NCBI GenBank assembly: GCA_040755975.1
Contig: JBFLZY010000006.1
Span: forward strand, 10,078-74,077
Direction: 5' to 3'
DNA: 64,000 nucleotides
Origin: Bacillota bacterium
GTDB lineage: Bacteria; Bacillota; Desulfotomaculia; Desulfotomaculales; Nap2-2B
Below are positions 7,915 through 32,621 of this stretch, piece after piece. The translations under genes were made by a program, and so were the position numbers. Every line of letters begins with the position of its first letter. Position 1 is the first letter of the stretch. The notes beneath the pieces were generated by a model that was not told the DNA's origin, did no database searches, and worked only from the letters and a program-made list of their open reading frames with translations.

Positions 7915-9621
7915 TTAAACCTCGCCAATAATTTTCTTTACATAAGCTACTATATTATCCACCGGCACAAAAGTTGTTTCGCCGGTGGCGCGCCGGCGCA
8001 CCTCCACCTCGCCGCTTTGAACGGCTTTATTGCCGACGGTTATGCGCAGGGGGTAGCCGATCAGGTCGGCGTCTTTAAACTTTACCCCCGGCCGCTCCGG
8101 ACGGTCGTCCAGAACAACTTCGACGCCCGCCCCCGCCAGCAGCTCATAAACCTGGTTGGCCATCGTCATTTGCTTTTCGTCCCGGTCGCTCACCGGCACC
8201 ACCACCACGTGGAAGGGGGCAATCGCCAAAGGCCAGACAATGCCGTTTTCATCGTGGTTTTGCTCAACGGCGGCGGCCATTGTCCGGGTGATCCCGATTC
8301 CGTAGCAACCCATAATCATCGGCCGGGGCTGCCCGTTTTCGTCCAGGAAAGTGGCTCCCAGGGCCTTGCTGTATTTATCCCCCAGCTTAAAAATCTGCCC
8401 CACTTCGATCCCCTGCGTTTCGGACAGTGGGCGGGCGCACCCGGGACAGGGATCCCCCGCTCTGACCAGGCGCAAATCAGCTACCATGTCGGGTTTAAAA
8501 TCACGCCCCGGGTTGACGTTCAGAAAATGTGTATCGTCCTTGTTTGCGCCGGTTACGGCATTAACCATCTGCATCACTTCCAGGTCGGCGGCGATCTTCA
8601 CTCCCGGCAAACCAACCGGGCCGGCATACCCCGGCGCGGCGCCGCTGATCCTGGCGACCGCCGGCGGGTCCGCCAGCTCGCACCGGAGCACGGCCAGCTC
8701 CTTTTGGAGCTTAACTTCGTTGATATCCCGGTCCCCGCGCACCAGAGCCGCCACGAAGCCCTGCTCCGTTTCAAAAAGAAGGGTTTTAATCAGGCGTTTG
8801 GCGTCCATTCCCAAAAAGGAGGTTACTTCGGCGACGGTGCGCCGGCCCGGAGTGGCCACTTCCCGCAGGGGGGCCGGCTCCTCGTTCGTCACCACCTGCC
8901 CGGAAGGAGAGGAGGCTCTCTCCACATTCGCCGCGTAATCGCAGTGGGGGCAAAAAACTACCGTTGATTCGCCCGCCGCGGCGAAAACGATAAATTCGTG
9001 CGTGTCCCTCCCCCCGATCGCCCCGGAATCGGCCTCCACCGGCCGAAAACGCAGGCCGCAGCGCTCAAAAACCCTGGTGTAGGCCGTGAACATCTTTTGG
9101 TAGCTGATCTCCAGCCCCTCGTGATCCCGGTCAAAGGAGTACAAATCTTTCATGATAAATTCCCGCCCGCGCAGCAAGCCGAAACGGGGCCGGCGCTCGT
9201 CCCGGTACTTGTTCTGGATCTGGTAGAGCAATAAAGGCAGTTGCCGGTACGATTTCACTTCGTTGCGCACCAGGTCGGTGATAATTTCCTCGTGGGTGGG
9301 GCCCAGGCAAAAGTCCCGCCCGTGGCGGTCTTTTAAACGAAACAGCTCCGGGCCGTATACATCCCACCGGCCGGATTCCTGCCACAATTCCGCCGGCTGG
9401 ATGATCGGCATCACCAGTTCCTGACCGCCCTGCCTGTCCATCTCTTCGCGGACGATCGTTTCGATCTTTTTGACGACCCGGAAAGCCAGGGGCAATAAAT
9501 TATATACTCCCGCCGCCGCTTTGCGGATGAAGCCCGCCCGCACCAGGAGCTGGTGGCTGACCACCTCCGCATCGGCGGGAACTTCCCGGAGCGTGGGAAT
9601 AAGCAATTGGGACGCCCGCAT
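7915..9621 (-). CDS. proS: Proline--tRNA ligase (bacterial type with editing domain)
   Basis: [34 protein letters not shown]... class II aaRS motifs; ATG at 9621 preceded by GAGGAGGA. Confidence 0.95.
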
Positions 9622-9639
9622 TACACCGGTTCCTCCTCT

Positions 9640-9955
9640 TTCGAAAATAGATCCCGTCTTGCCGTCCGTTTGCCGTCGCTCCGATGCTACGGGCCGACGA
9701 GACAGCGGCTTGGTTCGGAGCGAACCGTAGCAGCGCTGCAAAATGCGCGCGGAACATTACTTTTTTATTCTTCTGGCGCCAGGCAGCGATTACTGTTTAC
9801 TCTTTGCATAGTCGTATTGGCGCGTTTCGCGCTGCCGGTTCGCTTACCTCACCTACGCCGTGTCTCGTTACCGGCCCTTCGCATATGTCGCTCCCGGCAA
9901 ATCGGACGGCAAGCCGTTGGTTTTTCGTTCTTTATGTATGGAAACGTACGCTCCC
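9640..9955 (-). repeat. Copy A of a ~250-nt rod-like hairpin element (paralog at 31200-31535), located in the proS 5' leader
   Basis: About 90% identity of both arms to 31244-31499; closing stem 9661-9675 pairs with 9893-9910; the central ~70 nt are more diverged. Confidence 0.65.
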
Positions 9956-9975
9956 ATGGGCAACTCCCTTGAAAA

Positions 9976-11094
9976 TTAACTCGCCGGGCCGTTATCTTTA
10001 ACGCTTTCGGCCATTTTTCTAACCTCCCGGACGAGCTCATCCACCAGCTTTTCCTCCGGCACCCGGCGGATAATCTCGCCGCGGCGAAAAAGCAGCCCCA
10101 CCCCTTTGCCGCCGGCGATGCCCACGTCGGCGTGCCGGGCCTCGCCCGGTCCGTTCACCACGCACCCCATAACGGCCACTTTCAGCGGTGCGGCCACGTC
10201 CTGCAGTTCCTCTTCTACTTCGCCGGCGATCCTGATCAGGTCAATTTCGGTCCGCCCGCAGGTGGGGCAGGAAATTAACTCGATCCCGCGCTTGCGCAAA
10301 CCCAGGGCCTTTAATATTTCGTACCCCACCCGCACCTCTTCCAACGGGTTCCCCGTCAAAGACACCCTGATGGTATCCCCGATTCCCTCGGCCAGCAAAG
10401 CGCCGATGCCGACGGCCGACTTTACCACTCCCGAACGCAGGGTGCCCGCTTCCGTAACCCCCACGTGGAAGGGGTAGACGACTTTTTCCGCCAGCAGCCG
10501 GTACGCCGCGATCATCAGCCCGACGTCGGAAGCCTTCACGGAAACTTTTATTTCAAAAAAACCCAACTCTTCCAGGAGGCGGATGTGCTTAAGGGCGCTT
10601 TCCACCAGCGCCGGCGCGTTCGGCGAGCCGTATTTTTGGAGCAGTTCCTTTTCCAGGGAACCGGCGTTTACGCCGATGCGGATAGGCACTTTTTTCTTTT
10701 TCGCCGCTTCCACAACGGCCGCCACCCTTTCCGGCCCGCCGATATTGCCCGGATTAATCCGCAAGCCGTCGACACCCGCCGCCAGGGCGCGCAGGGCAAG
10801 GCGGTAGTCAAAATGAATATCGGCAACCAGGGGGATGTTGATTTGCTGCTTAATTAAAGGCAGGGCGTCCGCCGCCCGGCGATCGGGAACGGCCACGCGC
10901 ACGATCTCGCAGCCGGCGGCGGCCAGCTCGTTAATCTGGGCCACCGTCGCCGCTACGTTGCGGGTATCGGTATTGGTCATGGACTGCACGGAAACGGGGG
11001 CTTCCCCGCCCACCTGCACCGGTCCGACCCAGATCGGCCGGGTTTTTCTGCGCTTCACCAAAAGCCAGCCCCTATTTATAAATATTCGAAGCAT
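9976..11094 (-). CDS. ispG: 4-hydroxy-3-methylbut-2-en-1-yl diphosphate synthase (flavodoxin)
   Basis: [30 protein letters not shown]..., C-terminal CPTCGR and GCVVNGPGE Fe-S motifs; the true start may be GTG 11058 or TTG 11061. Confidence 0.95.
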
Positions 11095-11201
11095 CAGAGT
11101 GAGCCAAGGACAACCCCCAGGCCCTAGCGGGTTTGCTGAATATTTACCCCTATTTTTTGCTTGTGCCCTGTCCTATGCTCTAATTGTCCTCTAACCTTGC
11201 T

Positions 11202-12251
11202 CTATCTTTGGAGCAGTTGCAACAGATCGTTATAGGTAATGACCACAATCAACAAAATTAATAACCCGAAACCGATCATGTGAATAAAATTTTCTTTAAC
11301 CGGGTCCACGGGCCGGCCCCGGACCCATTCCACCGTCAGAAACATCAAACGGCTGCCGTCTAAGGCCGGGACGGGAAACAGGTTAAATAAACCCAGGTTT
11401 ATGCTCAGGAAGGCAGCCAGCTGAAGCAAATTGAACATACCGAATTCGGCCGCCCGGTTAATCTCCCAAACGATCCGCACCGGCCCGCCCAAATCGGCCG
11501 GGGCCCTGCCGGAAATCATCTGGCCGATAAAATTAATGATCACCGCGGTTACCCGGACGGTGTATTCCGTACCGGCGGCCAGGGCGCTGAATAAGTTCAG
11601 GCGCCGCAACTCTGGAGCCGGGTAAACGCCGATTTTCCCCTTGCCCTGTTCATCGCGCCGGGGGGTTACCAGGATCTCTTTAACCTCCCCGGCGCGCCGG
11701 ACGGTGAGGGTAAGATTCTGGTCGGGACGGGCGCCGATAATTTCCGTCATTTGCTCCCAGCTGGTGATCTCCCGGCCATCAATGGCGACTATTTTATCCT
11801 TCGGCAACAATCCGGCTTTTTCTGCCGGCCCCCCGGGCACCAGTTGCTCCACAACGGTGGTCACTTTGGGCAGCCCCTCGGGAGTCAGCGCGGGAACGCC
11901 CTGAATCATAAAAATCAAGGCCAGGATTAAAATCGCCAGCACAAAGTTCATCACCGAACCGGCCCCGATGACCAGCATCCGTTGCCAGACAGGTTTTTTG
12001 TTAAAACTCCTGGCTTCGTCCGTAATCTTTTCTTCCGGGTCCATACCCGCCATGCGGACAAAGCCGCCCAGGGGGAAAAGCCTTAAGTTGTAGGCCGTTT
12101 CCCCGCGCGGAATACTGAACAACCTGGGACCGAAGCCGATGCTGAACTCGTGGATCTGGATTCCCACGGCCCTGGCCAGGATAAAATGGCCCAATTCGTG
12201 AAAGATGATCAGCAGGCCGAAAACAAATACCGCGGCCCAAAAAGTCTGCAT
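11202..12251 (-). CDS. rseP: RIP metalloprotease RseP/YluC (site-2 protease)
   Basis: HELGHF zinc motif at the N-terminus, PDZ region, C-terminal NLFPVPALDGSRL. Confidence 0.9.
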   Translation of the reverse strand: MQTFWAAVFVFGLLIIFHELGHFILARAVGIQIHEFSIGFGPRLFSIPRGETAYNLRLFPLGGFVRMAGMDPEEKITDEARSFNKKPVWQRMLVIGAGSVMNFVLAILILALIFMIQGVPALTPEGLPKVTTVVEQLVPGGPAEKAGLLPKDKIVAIDGREITSWEQMTEIIGARPDQNLTLTVRRAGEVKEILVTPRRDEQGKGKIGVYPAPELRRLNLFSALAAGTEYTVRVTAVIINFIGQMISGRAPADLGGPVRIVWEINRAAEFGMFNLLQLAAFLSINLGLFNLFPVPALDGSRLMFLTVEWVRGRPVDPVKENFIHMIGFGLLILLIVVITYNDLLQLLQR

Positions 12252-12258
12252 TTTCTGT

Positions 12259-13419
12259 TCACACCTTACTTTTCACCAGCTTTTGCGCCAGGTCTTTCGC
12301 CCAGCGGTCGGCGGTCAGCACATCTTCGAGGTCTCTGCACTCCGAAACACTATGGGCGGCCATCACCCGTTCGACGATCTCCGGAACTGCCGCAAAAGAA
12401 ATTGCCCCGGCCAAAAAGGCCGCCACCGCCACTTCGTTGGCCGCGTTTAAAACCACCGGCATGGTGCCCCCTTCCCGCCCGGCGGCAAGGGCCAGGGCAA
12501 GGCAGCGAAAACGCTTCAAATCGGGCGGCTCAAAGGTCAGTTGCACCATTTCAGCCCAGTTTATCCTGGGCAGCTGGTTGGGCCGGCGGTCGGGGTAGGT
12601 CAGCGCAAACTGAATGGGCACGCGCATATCCGGAACCCCCAGCTGGGCCAGCGTGGAGCCGTCGACAAACTCCACCAGCGAATGGATGATACTTTGCGGG
12701 TGCACCACCACCTGGATCTGATCATAGTTTAACCCAAACAGCCACCTTGCTTCAATAACCTCCAGGCCCTTATTCATCAAAGTCGCCGAATCAATGGTCA
12801 CCTTGCGGCCCATTTGCCAGTTCGGGTGCGCTAAAGCCATCTCCACGGTGACCTTGTCCAGATCGGCGGGCCCTCTTAAAAAAGGACCCCCGGAGGCGGT
12901 GAGGATAATTTTCGCCACCTGCCGGCGCGGGGTATCCCCGAGACACTGCCAGATCGCGGAGTGCTCACTGTCCACGGGCAAAATCCGCGCTTTTTGCGCC
13001 GCGGCCAGTTTCATCACCAGCTCCCCGGCGGTGACCAGGGTCTCTTTATTGGCCAGGGCGATATTTTTTCCCGCCCGGATGGCCGCCACCGTGGGAAGCA
13101 GGCCCAGAATACCCGGGACGGCCGTTAACACCAGGTCGGCGCCGGGAAAGGAGGCCACTTCCTGCAGCCCGGCCTCCCCGTAAAAAATCGCCGGCCGCCC
13201 GGCAAAGGACAGCGCGGCGGACAACGCTTGCGCTTCCTTTCGGCCGGCCACAGCTACAACAGCCGGCCGAAATTCCTTTATTTGCCCGGCCAAAAGCCGC
13301 CAGTTCCTGCCGGCCGCCAGACCCGCCACAACAAAATCCTCCGGGAACCGGCGGATCACCTCCAGCGCCTGCCGGCCGATGGAACCGGTGCTGCCCAAAA
13401 TAACGATTCTTTTAGCCAT
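12259..13419 (-). CDS. dxr: 1-deoxy-D-xylulose 5-phosphate reductoisomerase
   Basis: MAKRIVILGSTGSIGRQALEV..., ANKETLV, PVDSEHSAIWQC motifs; start ATG 13419. Confidence 0.95.
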   Translation of the reverse strand: MAKRIVILGSTGSIGRQALEVIRRFPEDFVVAGLAAGRNWRLLAGQIKEFRPAVVAVAGRKEAQALSAALSFAGRPAIFYGEAGLQEVASFPGADLVLTAVPGILGLLPTVAAIRAGKNIALANKETLVTAGELVMKLAAAQKARILPVDSEHSAIWQCLGDTPRRQVAKIILTASGGPFLRGPADLDKVTVEMALAHPNWQMGRKVTIDSATLMNKGLEVIEARWLFGLNYDQIQVVVHPQSIIHSLVEFVDGSTLAQLGVPDMRVPIQFALTYPDRRPNQLPRINWAEMVQLTFEPPDLKRFRCLALALAAGREGGTMPVVLNAANEVAVAAFLAGAISFAAVPEIVERVMAAHSVSECRDLEDVLTADRWAKDLAQKLVKSKV

Positions 13420-13483
13420 CAACCCAACCCTCGACTTACCTGAAAAGGCTGCCGAAAAATCTCCGCATCGTCCATGGCGGCGG

Positions 13484-14560
13484 TTATCCCTGCTTTTTCG
13501 CAATCATACCGGCCTTGAGCGCGGCCAGCACAGTGATTAACAAAATCGGCCCCAAAACCAGCCCGGTCACCCCGATGGTTTTTAAACCCACGTACATGGC
13601 AATTAACACGGCCAGCGGGTGCAGGCCCAAATTGGCCGCCACCACCCTGGCTTCCAGGGTTTGCCGCACCGCCCAGACCAGCGCGTACAGGATGAGCAAC
13701 TTAATCCCAAAACCTACGTTGCCGCTCAATAAAGCCCAGGCGGCCCAGGGCAGGTACACGGTTGCCGGACCCAGCACGGGAATCAAATCGAAAAAGCCGA
13801 TGAGCAAACCCACCGTTAAAGCGTATTTTGCCCCGATGATCTGCAATCCCACAATGCTTTGCAAGGTGGTGAGCGAAATCAAAATAAGCTGGGCGCGCAG
13901 GTAAGCCAAAAAGGCCCCCACCACTTCCCGGCCCACGCCGGCGGTCCTCTCCCCCCACGGAGAAGGGACGTATTTCAACCAAAACTGGAGAATCTCCTTT
14001 CTATCCCGGCTGATAAAATAGGTGGCCAGCAAAGTCACAATCAAAATCATCACCGCGCCGGGCACGGCGGAAGCCAGGTGAAGCAAAGCATTTGCCGCCT
14101 GACCGGCCAGGCCCGACAGCCACTTTGTAACCACGCCTATGTTCTCCTGGATCCGGTCGGTGATTAACGGCGGCAATTGAAAATAAAAAACCCTTCCGCG
14201 CTCGACAAGCTGGCTGATATATTCCTGAACAGGCCAGATATATTTAGGAAGCTTGATCGATAAATCGGTTAATTCCGCAACCAGTCGAAAAATCAGCAGG
14301 CTCAAAAGGGACCCCAGGCCGCCGATGAGGATAACCATTGCCGCCGCTACCGCCAAAGGTCTCGTCAGCCTGGCGCGCTGATTGAAAAACTTGACCAGGG
14401 GTTCGATAAACACGGCCAGAATAACCGCCAGGATAAACGGGATCGTTATAACGAACAGATATTTAATGACCACCAGCACTTCCGGCACGATAAACTTCCA
14501 GGCCAGATACAACAGCAAAAGCGTTATCGTGATGGCTGCAATTTGAAGGTAACGGGGCAC
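13484..14560 (-). CDS. AI-2E family transporter / sporulation integral membrane protein YtvI-like
   Basis: 358-aa polytopic protein with the family layout (central FISRD, C-terminal FDLIPVLGP...GLHPL motifs). Confidence 0.65.
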   Translation of the reverse strand: MPRYLQIAAITITLLLLYLAWKFIVPEVLVVIKYLFVITIPFILAVILAVFIEPLVKFFNQRARLTRPLAVAAAMVILIGGLGSLLSLLIFRLVAELTDLSIKLPKYIWPVQEYISQLVERGRVFYFQLPPLITDRIQENIGVVTKWLSGLAGQAANALLHLASAVPGAVMILIVTLLATYFISRDRKEILQFWLKYVPSPWGERTAGVGREVVGAFLAYLRAQLILISLTTLQSIVGLQIIGAKYALTVGLLIGFFDLIPVLGPATVYLPWAAWALLSGNVGFGIKLLILYALVWAVRQTLEARVVAANLGLHPLAVLIAMYVGLKTIGVTGLVLGPILLITVLAALKAGMIAKKQG

Positions 14561-14579
14561 CTTAAAAAAACACCTCGGC

Positions 14580-15374
14580 TTAAATAATTAACTTCTGAAC
14601 GTAGTAATAAACCAGGGGAGCGGTAAACAACATACTGTCAAAGCGATCCAGCATACCCCCGTGCCCGGGAATAAGATCCCCGGCGTCTTTAACCCCGACC
14701 TGCCGCTTAAAGGCCGACTCCACCAGATCCCCGGCCTGCGCGGCAACCCCCAGCAAAAGACCCAGCACCAAAACGGGCGCCGGCGGCAAGAAAGGGTAGA
14801 TGTAAAGAAAAGCGGCGGCCGCCAGAAAACTTCCCGCCGCCCCGCCAATCGCCCCCTCGATGGTTTTGCCGGGGCTTAAAACGCGGGCCAGGCGACGTTT
14901 ACCAAAATATTTACCGATAAAAAAAGCGGTTGTATCGCTCAACCAGGTTCCGACCAACATAAAAACCACCCAGATCCAGCCGTCGGGCAAGGTGCGCAGG
15001 AGATAAACGTAGACAAAAAGGCCCACGTAAGAAGTGGCCAGCAAAGCCATGGCCATGTCGATTAAATTAAATTTCGGGTAAAAAAAGATAAACCATAGTA
15101 AAAATATAAAAAATATAATGGCGATTGCCCCCGCCAGGCCCGCGTCTTTATATAAATAAACGCTTCCCAAAAGCAAGGCCGCGCCTAAAATCATCAGCCC
15201 GAAAGGGATGTTTAAAGCCAGGCGGCGGAACATGCGCTGGATTTCCCGCAAAGACAGCAGCATGACCAGCGCGCTGAAGCCAAGCAGCGCAAAACCGCCC
15301 CACCAGACGGCCAGGATAATTAAGGGAACCCCCACTAAAGCGCTAAATACCCTGGGTACTAACAAACATTTCAC
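14580..15374 (-). CDS. cdsA: Phosphatidate cytidylyltransferase
   Basis: C-terminal SAFKRQVGVKDAGDLIPGHGGMLDRFDS signature. Confidence 0.9.
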   Translation of the reverse strand: MKCLLVPRVFSALVGVPLIILAVWWGGFALLGFSALVMLLSLREIQRMFRRLALNIPFGLMILGAALLLGSVYLYKDAGLAGAIAIIFFIFLLWFIFFYPKFNLIDMAMALLATSYVGLFVYVYLLRTLPDGWIWVVFMLVGTWLSDTTAFFIGKYFGKRRLARVLSPGKTIEGAIGGAAGSFLAAAAFLYIYPFLPPAPVLVLGLLLGVAAQAGDLVESAFKRQVGVKDAGDLIPGHGGMLDRFDSMLFTAPLVYYYVQKLII

Positions 15375-15379
15375 CAGCC

Positions 15380-16120
15380 TTAAACCAGCCCGCCGAAACG
15401 CCGCTCCCGGCTTTGAAAATCAACAATCGCCTGCAACAAATGGATCCGGCGAAAATCGGGCCAGAGGACCGGAGTTAACCAAAATTCCGTATACGCCAGC
15501 TGCCAGAGCAAAAAATTGCTCACCCGGTAGTCGCCGGAAGGCCTGATTAAAAGATCGGGATCCGGCTGCCCGGCGGTATATAAATGCTCGGCGATGATCT
15601 TTTCGTCGATCTCCCCCGGGGCCAATTGCCCCTGCCGCACTTTTTCGGCGACGGCGCGCACGGCGTCCACCAATTCACTCCGGCTGCCGTAATTTAACGC
15701 CACGTTCAAGGTCAATCCCTTCTTTTCGCGGGTCCGCTCGCTGGCCACGCGCACCGCCTGCCGAGCGGAAGGGGGCAAATCTTCCAGCTTCCCGATGGGG
15801 TTAATCCGGATGTCCTGCGCGGCCAATTCCTCAATTTCCTTTTGAAGATATTCTATTAGCAGATTCATTAAAGTATTTACTTCTTCCCGGGGCCTTTTCC
15901 AGTTTTCTGTCGAGAACGCATAAACGGTCAAATATTTAATCCCCAGCTCAACGCACAGCTTAACAATCTCCCGCAGGGATTCCACCCCCGCCCGGTGTCC
16001 GAAAGTGCGGGGCAACCCCCGGCGCTGCGCCCAGCGACCGTTTCCATCCATGATGATGGCAATATGCAACGGTAAACGGGACCGGTCCACCCGGGCAAGC
16101 AACTTTTTTTCTTCGGTCAT
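15380..16120 (-). CDS. uppS: Isoprenyl transferase (undecaprenyl diphosphate synthase)
   Basis: HIAIIMDGNGRWA, TVYAFSTENWKRP, LLIRPSGDYRVSNFLLWQLAYTEF motifs; start ATG 16120. Confidence 0.95.
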   Translation of the reverse strand: MTEEKKLLARVDRSRLPLHIAIIMDGNGRWAQRRGLPRTFGHRAGVESLREIVKLCVELGIKYLTVYAFSTENWKRPREEVNTLMNLLIEYLQKEIEELAAQDIRINPIGKLEDLPPSARQAVRVASERTREKKGLTLNVALNYGSRSELVDAVRAVAEKVRQGQLAPGEIDEKIIAEHLYTAGQPDPDLLIRPSGDYRVSNFLLWQLAYTEFWLTPVLWPDFRRIHLLQAIVDFQSRERRFGGLV

Positions 16121-16297
16121 TTTCTTGTCGCCTTCTAAATTTCTGAACACCACTCCCGGCCCCCTTACCAGAATCAGGCGTCGGACGTCCGAAAAATTAT
16201 AAACAACCCCCTCGGAAGAAGAGGTCGGTAGCCGAAAGGCCAGACGCCAGATTTATCCGTTTGCGGTCGCCAAGCAGCGCTCTTTCCCGACATAATT

Positions 16298-29666: not shown

Positions 29667-31238
29667 GTGGAAAAGAACAAAAAACTGCGAAAATGTAATG
29701 ACAAGGAGGGGGGTTGGCCGGTGTTTTTCCGAAAAATCACCACCCGCAGCAACGACAAGGAATACACGTACGTCAAGCTCATTGAAAACTACCGAAAGGG
29801 AAATAAGATCAAGCAAAGGGTCATCGCCAACCTGGGAAACATCGAAGAACTGGACCCGGACCGGGTGCGCAACCTGATCGCCAGCCTGGCGAAAGTTTGC
29901 GGCGTGGAACCTCCCGGCAAACCAAAATTGAAAATAAAAAGAGTCTTGCGTTACGGCGACGCCCTGCTGATCCATAAAATCTGGGAACGGCTGGGCCTCA
30001 CCGGCGCGGCGGGCGCCTTCCCCGGCGCGACGCCGGACCTGGCCCTGGCGATAGAACTGCTGGTCATTGCCGAACTCCTCCCCCTCCCCGCGGGAGCGTT
30101 TCAGGAATGGCGCCGCCACCTCTATTTGCCCGCTCCGGAACAGGCGAATCCCCCGCCCCGGGAAGAAGTCCTGAACTATCTGGCCGAAAACGGGCGGCGC
30201 CTCCAGGAACGCATCTTTCACCGGTTGCAGGAATGGGGAAAAGTAACCTCGCCCATCTACCTTTTCGCCGTGAAGAGCCTGGTGGAAAACATCCCCCCGC
30301 AGCCGGCCCACTTTCTCAACCGGCGCGGCGAACGCCGTTTCTTCGACCTGGATTTATTTACGACGCCCGCGGGAATCCCGGCCGGGTACGCCGCAACGGC
30401 TCGAAACACTGCAGACGGGCAAAACCTGACCAAAAGGATGGCCCAGGCCGGCGAACGGTTTAAAAATTACCGGGTTATCCTGGTCGGCAATTTTCCCGCC
30501 CTTCCCGAAGAAAATCCGCCTGGTCTTGCCAGGTACGCCCGGGAATACATCACCGGTCTTTCCCTTTCCTCCCCCAAAGCCGGGGAGACCAGCCGGAAAG
30601 TCTTGCCGGCAGACCTTTTCCCCGCAGATCTCATCCCGGCAGCTCTTTTGGAGAACTTCCACCGGCTTGCCGACGACCTCTGGTACCGGGAAATCAAATC
30701 GGAACAAACGCGCTACCTGTTATGTTCGAATCCTTTTCAAAATCGCAATTTCATTATTCAAACAAATACCGAAGATCTCCCCGCCTCCGAAATTATCCGG
30801 ATCTATAACGATTTCGCCGCTGTTCAAGCCCGCTACCGGGTCATCGGATGCCCCGCCCGGCCGGATTGCACCGCCATGAGCCTGCCGGGGCGGATCTTTA
30901 TTTCCTGGCTGGCCCACCTGGTCGAGAGGCTCCTCGACTATATTTTCCAGGAACAGGGAATTAATATAAATGCGCTTGCCGCCCTGCAAACTTTGGAGCC
31001 GGTTAAGATAGTCATCAACGAAATGGGGGGTGAGATCGGCAGTTCGGTAATGGCGATGGATAAGGCGCAGAAAAAAATTCTATCCGCCCTGGAAGCGGGA
31101 GTGGCGCCTTCAGAAGCACCTGACGGGTTTCGTCCGACTTCCTGTCCCGCCGGGCAACACCGGCGACACCTTAGAAAACAGAGGTTGGGGATTAGACTCC
31201 CAGGCCATTTTCGCAGCACAAACAGAAAACGAAAATGA
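29667..31238 (+). CDS. IS1634/IS4-family transposase-like protein, probably degenerate
   Basis: N-terminus FFRKITTRSNDKEYTYVKLIENYRKGNKIKQRVIANLG is typical of IS1634 transposases. The expected second catalytic Asp region reads ILVGNFPALPEEN. The last ~15 codons run into the hairpin repeat. Confidence 0.55.
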   Translation: MEKNKKLRKCNDKEGGWPVFFRKITTRSNDKEYTYVKLIENYRKGNKIKQRVIANLGNIEELDPDRVRNLIASLAKVCGVEPPGKPKLKIKRVLRYGDALLIHKIWERLGLTGAAGAFPGATPDLALAIELLVIAELLPLPAGAFQEWRRHLYLPAPEQANPPPREEVLNYLAENGRRLQERIFHRLQEWGKVTSPIYLFAVKSLVENIPPQPAHFLNRRGERRFFDLDLFTTPAGIPAGYAATARNTADGQNLTKRMAQAGERFKNYRVILVGNFPALPEENPPGLARYAREYITGLSLSSPKAGETSRKVLPADLFPADLIPAALLENFHRLADDLWYREIKSEQTRYLLCSNPFQNRNFIIQTNTEDLPASEIIRIYNDFAAVQARYRVIGCPARPDCTAMSLPGRIFISWLAHLVERLLDYIFQEQGININALAALQTLEPVKIVINEMGGEIGSSVMAMDKAQKKILSALEAGVAPSEAPDGFRPTSCPAGQHRRHLRKQRLGIRLPGHFRSTNRKRK

Positions 31239-31535
31239 CCGGCCCGCCGTTCGATTTGCCGGGAGCGACATGTGCGTAGGGCCGGGTAACGAGACACGGC
31301 GCAGGTGAGGCAAGCGAACCGGCAGCGCGAAACGCGCAAATAACCCAATGATAGAAAACTGACAGCAATCGCCGGAAAACCGAGTAAGAAAAGAAAACTA
31401 ATGTACCGCGCGCATTTTGCAGCGCTGCCTGGTTCGCTCCGAACCAGGCCGATGTCTCGTCGGCCCGAAGCATCGGAGCGACGGCAAACGAACGGCGGGC
31501 GAAAGCCTGTTTTCAGGAGAGAATAACGAGAGTAC
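31200..31535 (+). repeat. Copy B of the ~250-nt rod-like hairpin element, upstream of a TauE-like gene
   Basis: Closing stem 31244-31254 pairs with 31489-31499; extended imperfect helix; two compensatory substitutions relative to copy A. Confidence 0.65.
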
Positions 31536-31628: not shown

Positions 31629-32621
31629 ATGATCGATCCCCTGACCACTGCGCCGGCAATCTTTTTTATCGGTCTTTACGCGGGTATTTTAAGGGTGTGT
31701 TACGGAACCGCCGCCCAGTTGCTGGCCGTTCCCCTGCTGAACATCTTCGGCCTTCCGACCGTTTTTGCCGCCGGCACCGCCATCGCCGGGAGCTTTTGCC
31801 AGACCGCCGCAACCCTCGTCCAGAAAGGCTCCCTTTCTTACGCGCACCGGCGGCTGGGGTTGGCCCTGGGTATCTTCGGTACCATCGGTATGTTTCTTGG
31901 TCATGCGCTGCTCGCCGGAATATCCGCTGTCAACCAGAATATTTTTACCGCCACCTGGACTGTTCTTCTTTTTGCTGCGGGAGCGGCAACCCTGGTGTAT
32001 TCCCTGGCCAAAGAAAAAAAATGCGGCCCCGGTCAAAATCCCCCTCCGTCCAATTGGCCGTTTTTATTCCGGCCCGGCCCGGGCAACACCCGGTTTATTG
32101 AATTTTTGTCTCTCCCGGCGGTTTTCCTGGTCGGGCTGGGAATCGGCTTCGCCACAGGGTTCTGGGGCCTGGGGGCGGGCCTGCCGGGGATCATTCTGCT
32201 GACCGGGGTTTTGCACGCACCCCCGCAGGTTGCCGCGGCCACCGACCTGGTTGCCTCCTCGATCATCAGTGCGGCGGCCCTGCTGAGCTACCTTCTCACC
32301 GGCCATTTGCATGCCTGGGCCCTGCTCCCCTTTGTCTGCGGACTGTTTGCCGGAAACTGGGCCGGCCATCTGGCGCCCCCGGAAATTAAGGCCGGAATGT
32401 TTCGTCCCGCCTTCGCCGGCGTATTGTTCCTGGGTGCGGCGGCGGCGGCCTTAAAAGTGGCCGGCCACGCCAAAATGGCGGGGCTCTTCTTGATGAGCGG
32501 CATGATTTTGCTCTGTGCGGCCCTCTTAGCCGGCCACCTGCTCATTAACTTGCTGCTGCAGCGCTCCGGCGAAAAAGAAACCGGCGGTAAGCAATCAGAG
32601 CATTCGCCAATTCACCCGTAA
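31629..32621 (+). CDS. TauE/SafE (DUF81) family anion permease
   Basis: 330-aa polytopic protein with AAGTA / AAATD pseudo-repeat motifs; RBS AAAGGGGTG. Confidence 0.75.
   Translation: MIDPLTTAPAIFFIGLYAGILRVCYGTAAQLLAVPLLNIFGLPTVFAAGTAIAGSFCQTAATLVQKGSLSYAHRRLGLALGIFGTIGMFLGHALLAGISAVNQNIFTATWTVLLFAAGAATLVYSLAKEKKCGPGQNPPPSNWPFLFRPGPGNTRFIEFLSLPAVFLVGLGIGFATGFWGLGAGLPGIILLTGVLHAPPQVAAATDLVASSIISAAALLSYLLTGHLHAWALLPFVCGLFAGNWAGHLAPPEIKAGMFRPAFAGVLFLGAAAAALKVAGHAKMAGLFLMSGMILLCAALLAGHLLINLLLQRSGEKETGGKQSEHSPIHP

Follow-up and report, generated by a model that had tools for sequence, protein, structure and literature searches.

The stretch of DNA analysed here, below called the window, is 64,000 nucleotides long and comes from a MAG of the Bacillota (G000), an assembly of 3.24 Mb in 220 contigs which is 92% complete. 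On the minus strand of the window proS is the distal gene in an operon-like run of co-directional ORFs ending with ispG and proS; upstream of proS the run covers 9976-16153, with short spacers between its ORFs. By gene order it resembles what we take to be the usual uppS-cdsA-dxr-rseP-ispG-proS cluster, the identities of ispG and proS having the support of Pfam. The proS product has the class II core, the editing and the anticodon-binding domains. The spacer between the two genes is 354 nt on the minus strand, and not 330 nt as given in an earlier note on this DNA. The features which the following argument builds on are:

9976-11094, minus strand: ispG (GcpE), the upstream gene of the operon (PF04551, E = 2.4e-157), with its stop codon TAA at 9976-9978.

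9964-9975, minus strand: the left target segment TTTTCAAGGGAG, the original Shine-Dalgarno-like site, which ends in the AG of the presumed exchange.

9633-9963, minus strand: copy A, an inserted, apparently non-autonomous element of 331 nt, which is the net difference between the spacer in G000 (354 nt) and in the closest relative genome, G005 (23 nt).

9917-9963, minus strand: the 5' module or left end of copy A, in which TTGCCCATG is joined by a small hairpin (9938-9957) and a linker rich in A.

9655-9916, minus strand: a rod-like imperfect hairpin of ~260 nt, the passenger, in which ~85 apical alignment columns vary between subfamilies.

9633-9654, minus strand: the 3' end or right end of copy A, GGGATCTATTTTCGAAAGAGGAG, which supplies the GGAG now serving as the Shine-Dalgarno sequence of proS.

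7915-9621, minus strand: proS, coding for a class II prolyl-tRNA synthetase (PF00587, PF04073 and PF03129), with its start codon ATG at 9619-9621.

31197-31522, plus strand: copy B, a lineage-specific insertion from the subfamily with the ACTCCC-type 5' module.

The large imperfect hairpin which the earlier note saw filling the spacer is real and has an extent of 9655-9916, compared with the ~250 nt (9661-9910) given there; its outer arms are 9655-9671 and 9900-9916. The minimum free energy is -149.7 kcal/mol (z = -7.2 compared to shuffled sequences, 0 of 100 shuffles folding equally well), and the predicted fold also contains the small hairpin of the 5' module. On its 3' side the rod is followed by CUAUUUUC, with a U-tract and then a Shine-Dalgarno sequence. 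A T-box leader (RF00230) would occupy the same place in a Bacillota genome, upstream of a gene for an aminoacyl-tRNA synthetase, but the rod neither matches the model nor contains a T-box sequence, and a close relative lacks it at the orthologous site. The statement in the earlier note that proS has no T-box was correct: an Rfam covariance search of 9300-10300 with E values up to 10 gave neither a T-box nor any other family, and at the gathering score the whole 64-kb window contains two tRNAs only. A simple scan found no promoter and no canonical terminator on the strand of the element. The earlier note left two readings of the hairpin, a cis-acting leader RNA and a palindromic mobile element. 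The first one supposes a dedicated leader (a riboswitch, an attenuator or a substitute for the T-box) which controls proS and the other genes found downstream of such elements. The U-tract after the rod and the Shine-Dalgarno sequence next to it are what could be expected of a leader; the missing Rfam match and the missing canonical terminator and promoter are not.

In G005 the 3' end of ispG is 98% identical to that of G000, and proS begins 23 nt after ispG. The spacer reads TAA-TTTTCGAAGGAG-GAACCGGTGTA-ATG, i.e. ...GAGTTAA-TTTTCGAAGGAGGAACCGGTGTA-ATG. The comparison of this spacer between related genomes, which had been proposed as a check, thereby gave a spacer with near-identical flanks and without the element. 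The leader reading fails because such a near-identical relative does without the element, and copy A is a recent insertion which took place after the split between G000 and G005. Copy B is missing too, both in G005, where its flanks abut (...GTGGATTAGA directly followed by ATGATGAGGG), and in G002, which has another spacer of 85 nt there. With empty sites at both loci in the window and a high number of copies in the genome, it was the mobile palindromic element, the second reading of the earlier note, which turned out to be right.

The ispG-proS spacers in G007, G010 and G009 are ~20 nt, as estimated from the ends of the alignments, and in G001, G002 and G003 unrelated repeats are found in the spacer. 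A heptamer-like repeat, GGCACAR/GAGGCAC, fills it in G002 (L045) and G003 (L047); the same repeat adjoins, on the upstream side, an insertion sequence (IS) described below (C71; L042:1090-1180). The ispG-proS spacer, and TATTTTC-GGAGG sites in general, are apparent hot spots for several repeat families. In the reverse direction G000 lacks several elements of other MAGs at the corresponding sites or has these sites rearranged, and the further pairs of filled and empty sites that were sought turned out mostly to be rearranged sites or other hairpin families. At C38:12313-12502 in G000 there is a simple hairpin, GTGGCCGGGC-AAGC-GCCCGGCCAC; in MAG158 (L071:1021-1266) the loop of this hairpin contains ~220 nt of extra palindromic sequence between flanks which are 96-98% identical. 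This is a hairpin-in-hairpin insertion or a palindrome expansion in a family other than the rods.

The earlier note described an element with two copies, the second at 31244-31499 with arms ~90% identical to those of the first. Both copies exist, copy B extending over 31197-31522 with a mean column identity to copy A of 88%, nearly identical arms and a central ~60 nt which diverge, but they are only two among ~54 full copies and many fragments in G000. A DNA search of this genome gave 41 matches to the element, whereas a profile made from full copies gave 139 hits, ~54 of them full or nearly full. The conserved unit exceeds the hairpin and consists of a 5' module of ~47-57 nt, the rod and a 3' tail. 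The module has the form ...CCCATG, small hairpin, A-rich ...ATGAAAAT, and the tail the form ...CTATTTTC-RRGGGAG, with CTATTTTC-N-GGAG present in most copies. Two subfamilies can be told apart by their 5' module, TTGCCCATG and ACCCCCATGC, copy B belonging to the latter, and the modules form a mosaic in which outer stems and apical parts have been exchanged between subfamilies. The sequence identity is 75-90% between copies and 75-80% between genera. No ORF is conserved (a stop-free frame of any kind is seen in 13 of 59 copies at most, and not consistently in one frame), and no transposase gene is found inside the 331-nt element.

Matches to the family were obtained in each of the five other genomes of the genus that were searched, those in G001 being few and partial, and also in one more genus of the same taxonomic family; four further genomes have 1-3 weak or partial matches each, and in most of the order searched the element was not found. 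A scan with exact patterns through one genome each from 185,579 species gave four MAGs only, three labelled 'Bacillota bacterium' and one 'Armatimonadota bacterium'. The MAG JAIMBK01, 'Armatimonadota bacterium HOT.MB2.58' (L083, L084, L087, L092, L097), carries the rod family, and some of its flanks are ~85-90% identical to G000; its 'Armatimonadota' label is probably wrong. Incomplete forms are also seen. There are ~45 solo hits to the 3' end in G000, and at C40:5606-5821 a 3' rod fragment is found together with a right end, a solo 5' module between two TATTTTC and a second right end, where the orthologous site in MAG158 (L075) contains a full element. A comparison of these two arrangements means that mini-elements and deletion derivatives of the rod family exist.

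The earlier note observed that both copies in the window have the orientation of the next gene, and this is so: each is sense to its downstream gene, which for copy B is the ORF starting at 31629. Between co-directional genes the family as a whole has 30 sense and 7 antisense copies, and other copies lie between convergent genes. After about half of the full copies a sense ORF of 100 aa or more follows at a distance of 60 nt or less. The sense bias could be taken as a sign of a leader, as could the presence of two aminoacyl-tRNA synthetase genes, proS and glyQ, among the downstream genes and the strongly conserved pairing with compensatory changes treated below. The downstream genes, however, also code for phosphofructokinase, a family-4 glycosyltransferase, CtsR, an alpha-amylase-family protein, an MBL-fold hydrolase, an AsnC/NirDL-like regulator, IspF and an HMA-domain protein, and these unrelated functions argue against a shared leader sensing a ligand or a tRNA. 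Seven antisense copies and the copies between convergent genes speak against such a scheme, and an identity of 75-90% between copies is unlike a regulon of leaders. The sense bias arises because the insertions adjoin Shine-Dalgarno-like ...GGAG sites, not from a shared regulatory role. Considering also the empty sites we find a dedicated leader RNA very improbable.

In the copies of G000 with readable junctions the left flank is variable but ends with AG, and the right end also ends with AG. No target duplication is seen beyond this AG, or AGA at copy B; here the left flank retains ...GGGGATTAGA, the right end of the element is ...TTTTCAGGAGAGA, and the junctions have AGA in common. There are no terminal inverted repeats, TTGCCCATG... 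and ...TTTTCGAAAGAGGAG not being inverted copies of each other. The asymmetric ends and the junctions sharing only AG (AGA at copy B) argue against a classical DDE-derived MITE. A first model for the exchange, which placed it immediately behind TTTTC and let the element begin with RAGGGAG, was rejected, since the empty site of copy B contains no TTTTC; it is at variance, too, with left flanks which vary between copies yet always end with AG. It should be noted that at copy A the left target TTTTCGAAGGAG and the usual right end TTTTCRAGGGAG are alike, which leaves an uncertainty of up to ~10 nt in the exchange point. The right end of copy A is GAAAGAGGAG and its left flank TTTTCAAGGGAG compared to TTTTCGAAGGAG in G005, each being 2-3 nt off a simple AG exchange; from the left flank TTTTCAAGGGAG and the right end TTTTCGAAAGAGGAG one would think that 7-mers had changed places.

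Three DEDD/IS110 transposase genes are found in G000. The insertion sequences C71 and C127, which are 78% identical in DNA and whose protein contains PF01548 and PF02371, start with a 5' module of the rod type and finish with ...CTATTTTC-RAGGGAG. At least six rods have, immediately upstream, DNA which the C71 module matches with 81-87% identity; the module of the rod C62 is identical to the IS at 52 of 63 positions, and for the copy A module and the left ends of C71/C127 the number is 42 of 64, ~6.5 sd above shuffles. No similarity was found between the interior of the IS and the rod. The left end of C127 itself carries the 5' module, and on the right side there is only CTATTTTCGAGGGAG, followed by unrelated sequence. 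Because C127 carries the module itself, the module belongs to the IS and not merely to its target. C71, for its part, directly adjoins a solo 5' module. The number of IS copies assembled in G000 is only 2-3; the MAGs are fragmented, and IS copies are often lost in assembly. In G005, G003 and G004 no matching IS was found at E <= 1e-60, though the rods are many there, and in the assemblies examined there was no IS with ends matching the ACCCCCATGC subfamily. The IS on C25 (L040 = G000 C25:2757-6191) was considered as a partner of the rods and rejected: its amino-acid identity to C71 is 60%, it has no relation to the rods and it is flanked by a different repeat, a 64-nt direct repeat ...GAAATTATAGCAYAATTTTCATGCCC..., to which a stretch on C46 is related with 89% identity. 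C25 and its repeat is a separate pair of IS and target.

A search of metagenomes for a closer autonomous partner gave only relatives of at most 63% identity. Transposase relatives with 48-63% amino-acid identity are common in soil and sediment metagenomes (L111-L190), and 45 of 80 such loci have at least one of the end motifs, mostly TTTTC-NNN-GGAG or CTATTTTC directly after the ORF. In several of them (L112, L115, L137) the same 12-mer is also found ~250 nt upstream of the ORF. These motifs suggest that a Shine-Dalgarno-like junction is a property of an IS clade and not of G000 alone; judged from the sequences, this appears to be a widespread IS110 clade.

Other bacterial repeats are well known to have a comparable appearance. 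The Correia/NEMIS, ERIC, RUP and BOX elements are dispersed imperfect palindromes of 100-300 nt composed of mosaic modules, and they are located in transcribed intergenic regions, often co-transcribed with their neighbours. The rod family is like them in being dispersed imperfect palindromes from mosaic modules. Correia and RUP elements, however, have terminal inverted repeats, target duplications and ties to DDE transposases, whereas the rods have neither the repeats nor the duplications, and their asymmetric ends match IS110.

The leaders of the two IS contain words which read like guides. In the non-coding leader of C71 (~210 nt) one finds CTGAGGAGTT, which is its own left flank ending with AG, and CAAGGGAG, which is its own right end. 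The corresponding positions in the C127 leader have CTGCGGAGTT and CGAGGGAGA, matching the different junctions of C127. The words are 8-10 nt long and vary between the two IS as the junctions vary (n = 2 IS copies). In IS621 each bridge-RNA loop has a 5' side which is same-sense as the left target or the left donor with the core added, along 8-9 nt (PMC11208160). The leader words behave as bridge-RNA guides would, and their geometry is that of the LTG and LDG guides in IS621. The likeness to IS621 consists in the DEDD recombinase (PF01548, PF02371) encoded by the partner IS and in the two same-sense leader words, one for left target plus core and one for right end plus core; the differences are that the core is AG here and CT in IS621, and that the leader of the partner IS opens with a conserved module common to the passengers and has no Rfam match. 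After the shared module an extended -10 motif, TGCTATACT, was read by eye. RNAalifold of the putative bridge RNA, with two sequences only, gave a closed domain of ~150 nt in which the two internal loops were not resolved, and Rfam on the IS loci gave no match for it. The ends of the rods, when joined (right CGAGGGAG, left TT(G/C)...CATG), fit the donor junction specified by the guides within a few bases in four rods at least.

From these sequence comparisons we consider it probable that the rod element resembles MITEPpu9 in being a non-autonomous passenger, one which an IS110 recombinase mobilises in trans. The DEDD recombinase encoded by the IS, together with the putative bridge RNA of its leader, would recognise the joined right end-AG-left end of the element as donor. 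The element would be excised or copied as a circle, and the circle would integrate at a target whose left side ends with ...AG, the ~260-nt hairpin being cargo. Many targets are Shine-Dalgarno sequences (TTTTC-RAGGGAG), TAATTTTCGAAGGAGGAACC being a candidate target. Such targets explain the position of the copies just 5' of start codons and their sense direction, and since the right end of the element brings a new GGAG the gene downstream still has a ribosome-binding site.

MITEPpu9/ssr9 has A' and B' boxes on its two sides and forms minicircles which depend on the transposase, and ISPpu9 has an A box of 43 bp, a B box of 16 bp and AG at the junctions (PMC12288879). The 5' module of copy A is comparable to the A box and its 3' end to the B box. 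Like MITEPpu9, the rod family has a passenger placed between near-copies of the end boxes of an IS (~47-57 nt on the left and ~15-35 nt on the right), an invariant AG at each junction without terminal inverted repeats, site-specific intergenic insertion, and both IS-linked and solo arrangements. The two differ in copy number (~54 full copies here and 8 there), in cargo (a ~260-nt rod here, there a small RNA gene complementary to an antisense RNA of the IS), in targets (Shine-Dalgarno-like here, REP/BIME there) and in host, which here is an uncultured Bacillota lineage where mobilisation is deduced from sequence. In the literature searched MITEPpu9 is the only IS110-associated non-autonomous element described, and the kind has been described very recently.

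It might be argued that the repeats spread in another way, as a DDE-type MITE, like REP/RAYT or by hairpin-driven template switching or recombination, and that IS110 elements merely target them. Repeats, REP and BIME among them, are indeed known targets of IS110-family elements (PMC12288879), and C71 is placed next to a solo 5' module. The recombination of modules as mosaics between subfamilies, the insertion of other hairpin families of these genomes into hairpin loops and the few IS copies assembled can be added to this. An IS which merely targets the repeats is, however, difficult to reconcile with C127, where the module is at the IS's own left end, or with the joined ends of the rods which fit the donor junction of the IS guides, and a DDE-type route should have left inverted repeats or a target duplication longer than AG. 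We regard the other routes as unlikely.

The pairing of the rod requires a separate discussion. RNAalifold of 59 distinct full copies from several MAGs gave 61 pairs, in 20 of which both partners have changed in one or more of the sequences. In our own count on the 59 copies 98.5% of the cells are paired, and 18 of the 61 pairs have double changes in at least two sequences; in a control with the partners slid by 1-3 columns, 31-39% of the cells pair and 0-5 pairs have double changes. Many of the compensatory changes are block swaps, such as the outer stem CCGGCCCGCCGTTCG... versus GAGGGCTGGAATTTG... and GGTGAGG/CCGAACC versus GCCGCGG/CCGCGGC, and because these are inherited by subfamilies the changes represent few events. 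On this alignment the pairing is clearly maintained. The maintenance may be an upkeep of the palindrome at the DNA level, a role in recombination or a role at the RNA level, and hitchhiking alone does not explain the compensatory upkeep.

An extension compatible with the IS110 passenger is that a mobile rod has been co-opted in operons, as an RNase III site, a stabiliser or a partial terminator or insulator; insertions would then be tolerable or even useful. Correia and ERIC elements are comparable precedents for co-opted hairpin repeats. The extent of pairing and the compensatory double changes are consistent with co-option, as are the 75-80% identity still seen between copies in different genera and the CUAUUUUC directly after the rod. 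The pairing could equally be required at the DNA level, however, by palindrome correction or for recombination, the double changes are in many cases inherited block swaps and not independent events, and the simple scan gave no terminator-like site on the strand of the element. We regard co-option in this sense as unlikely.

After the insertion the sequence in front of proS is GAGGAG-GAACCGGTGTA-ATG, with a Shine-Dalgarno sequence retained. The old Shine-Dalgarno-like segment is now located before the ATG of the module (9955-9957), from which a 29-codon ORF runs into the rod; the length of this ORF is not conserved among copies. A landing next to a Shine-Dalgarno sequence combined with a replacement Shine-Dalgarno sequence would be how these elements can sit in essential operons such as ispG-proS without killing the host. 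For the annotation of these MAGs it means that ~100 structured intergenic hairpins which look 'RNA-like' are one mobile repeat family, and the rods should not be annotated as leaders or as genes for non-coding RNA.

A stronger version of the model, which we put forward as a doubtful one, is a high-copy cargo element, carried by a whole lineage of uncultured Bacillota, with bridge-RNA guides aimed at Shine-Dalgarno sequences and with a rod kept under selection. If it were true, each insertion would split an operon junction, rebuild the ribosome-binding site and leave the old Shine-Dalgarno sequence before the conserved ATG of the module, and the selected rod, as RNA or as a DNA cruciform, would be of use to the element or the host, for instance by insulating, by being processed or by controlling recombination. 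An IS110 hitchhiker which rewires translation-start regions on a large scale would be the first such example from nature. In each copy the left target, the AG core and the right end can be read off, and guide words which match are found in the resident IS; with its dozens of polymorphic copies the family would in this way be a natural data set on how bridge RNAs choose donor and target, how much mismatch they accept and how cargo spreads.
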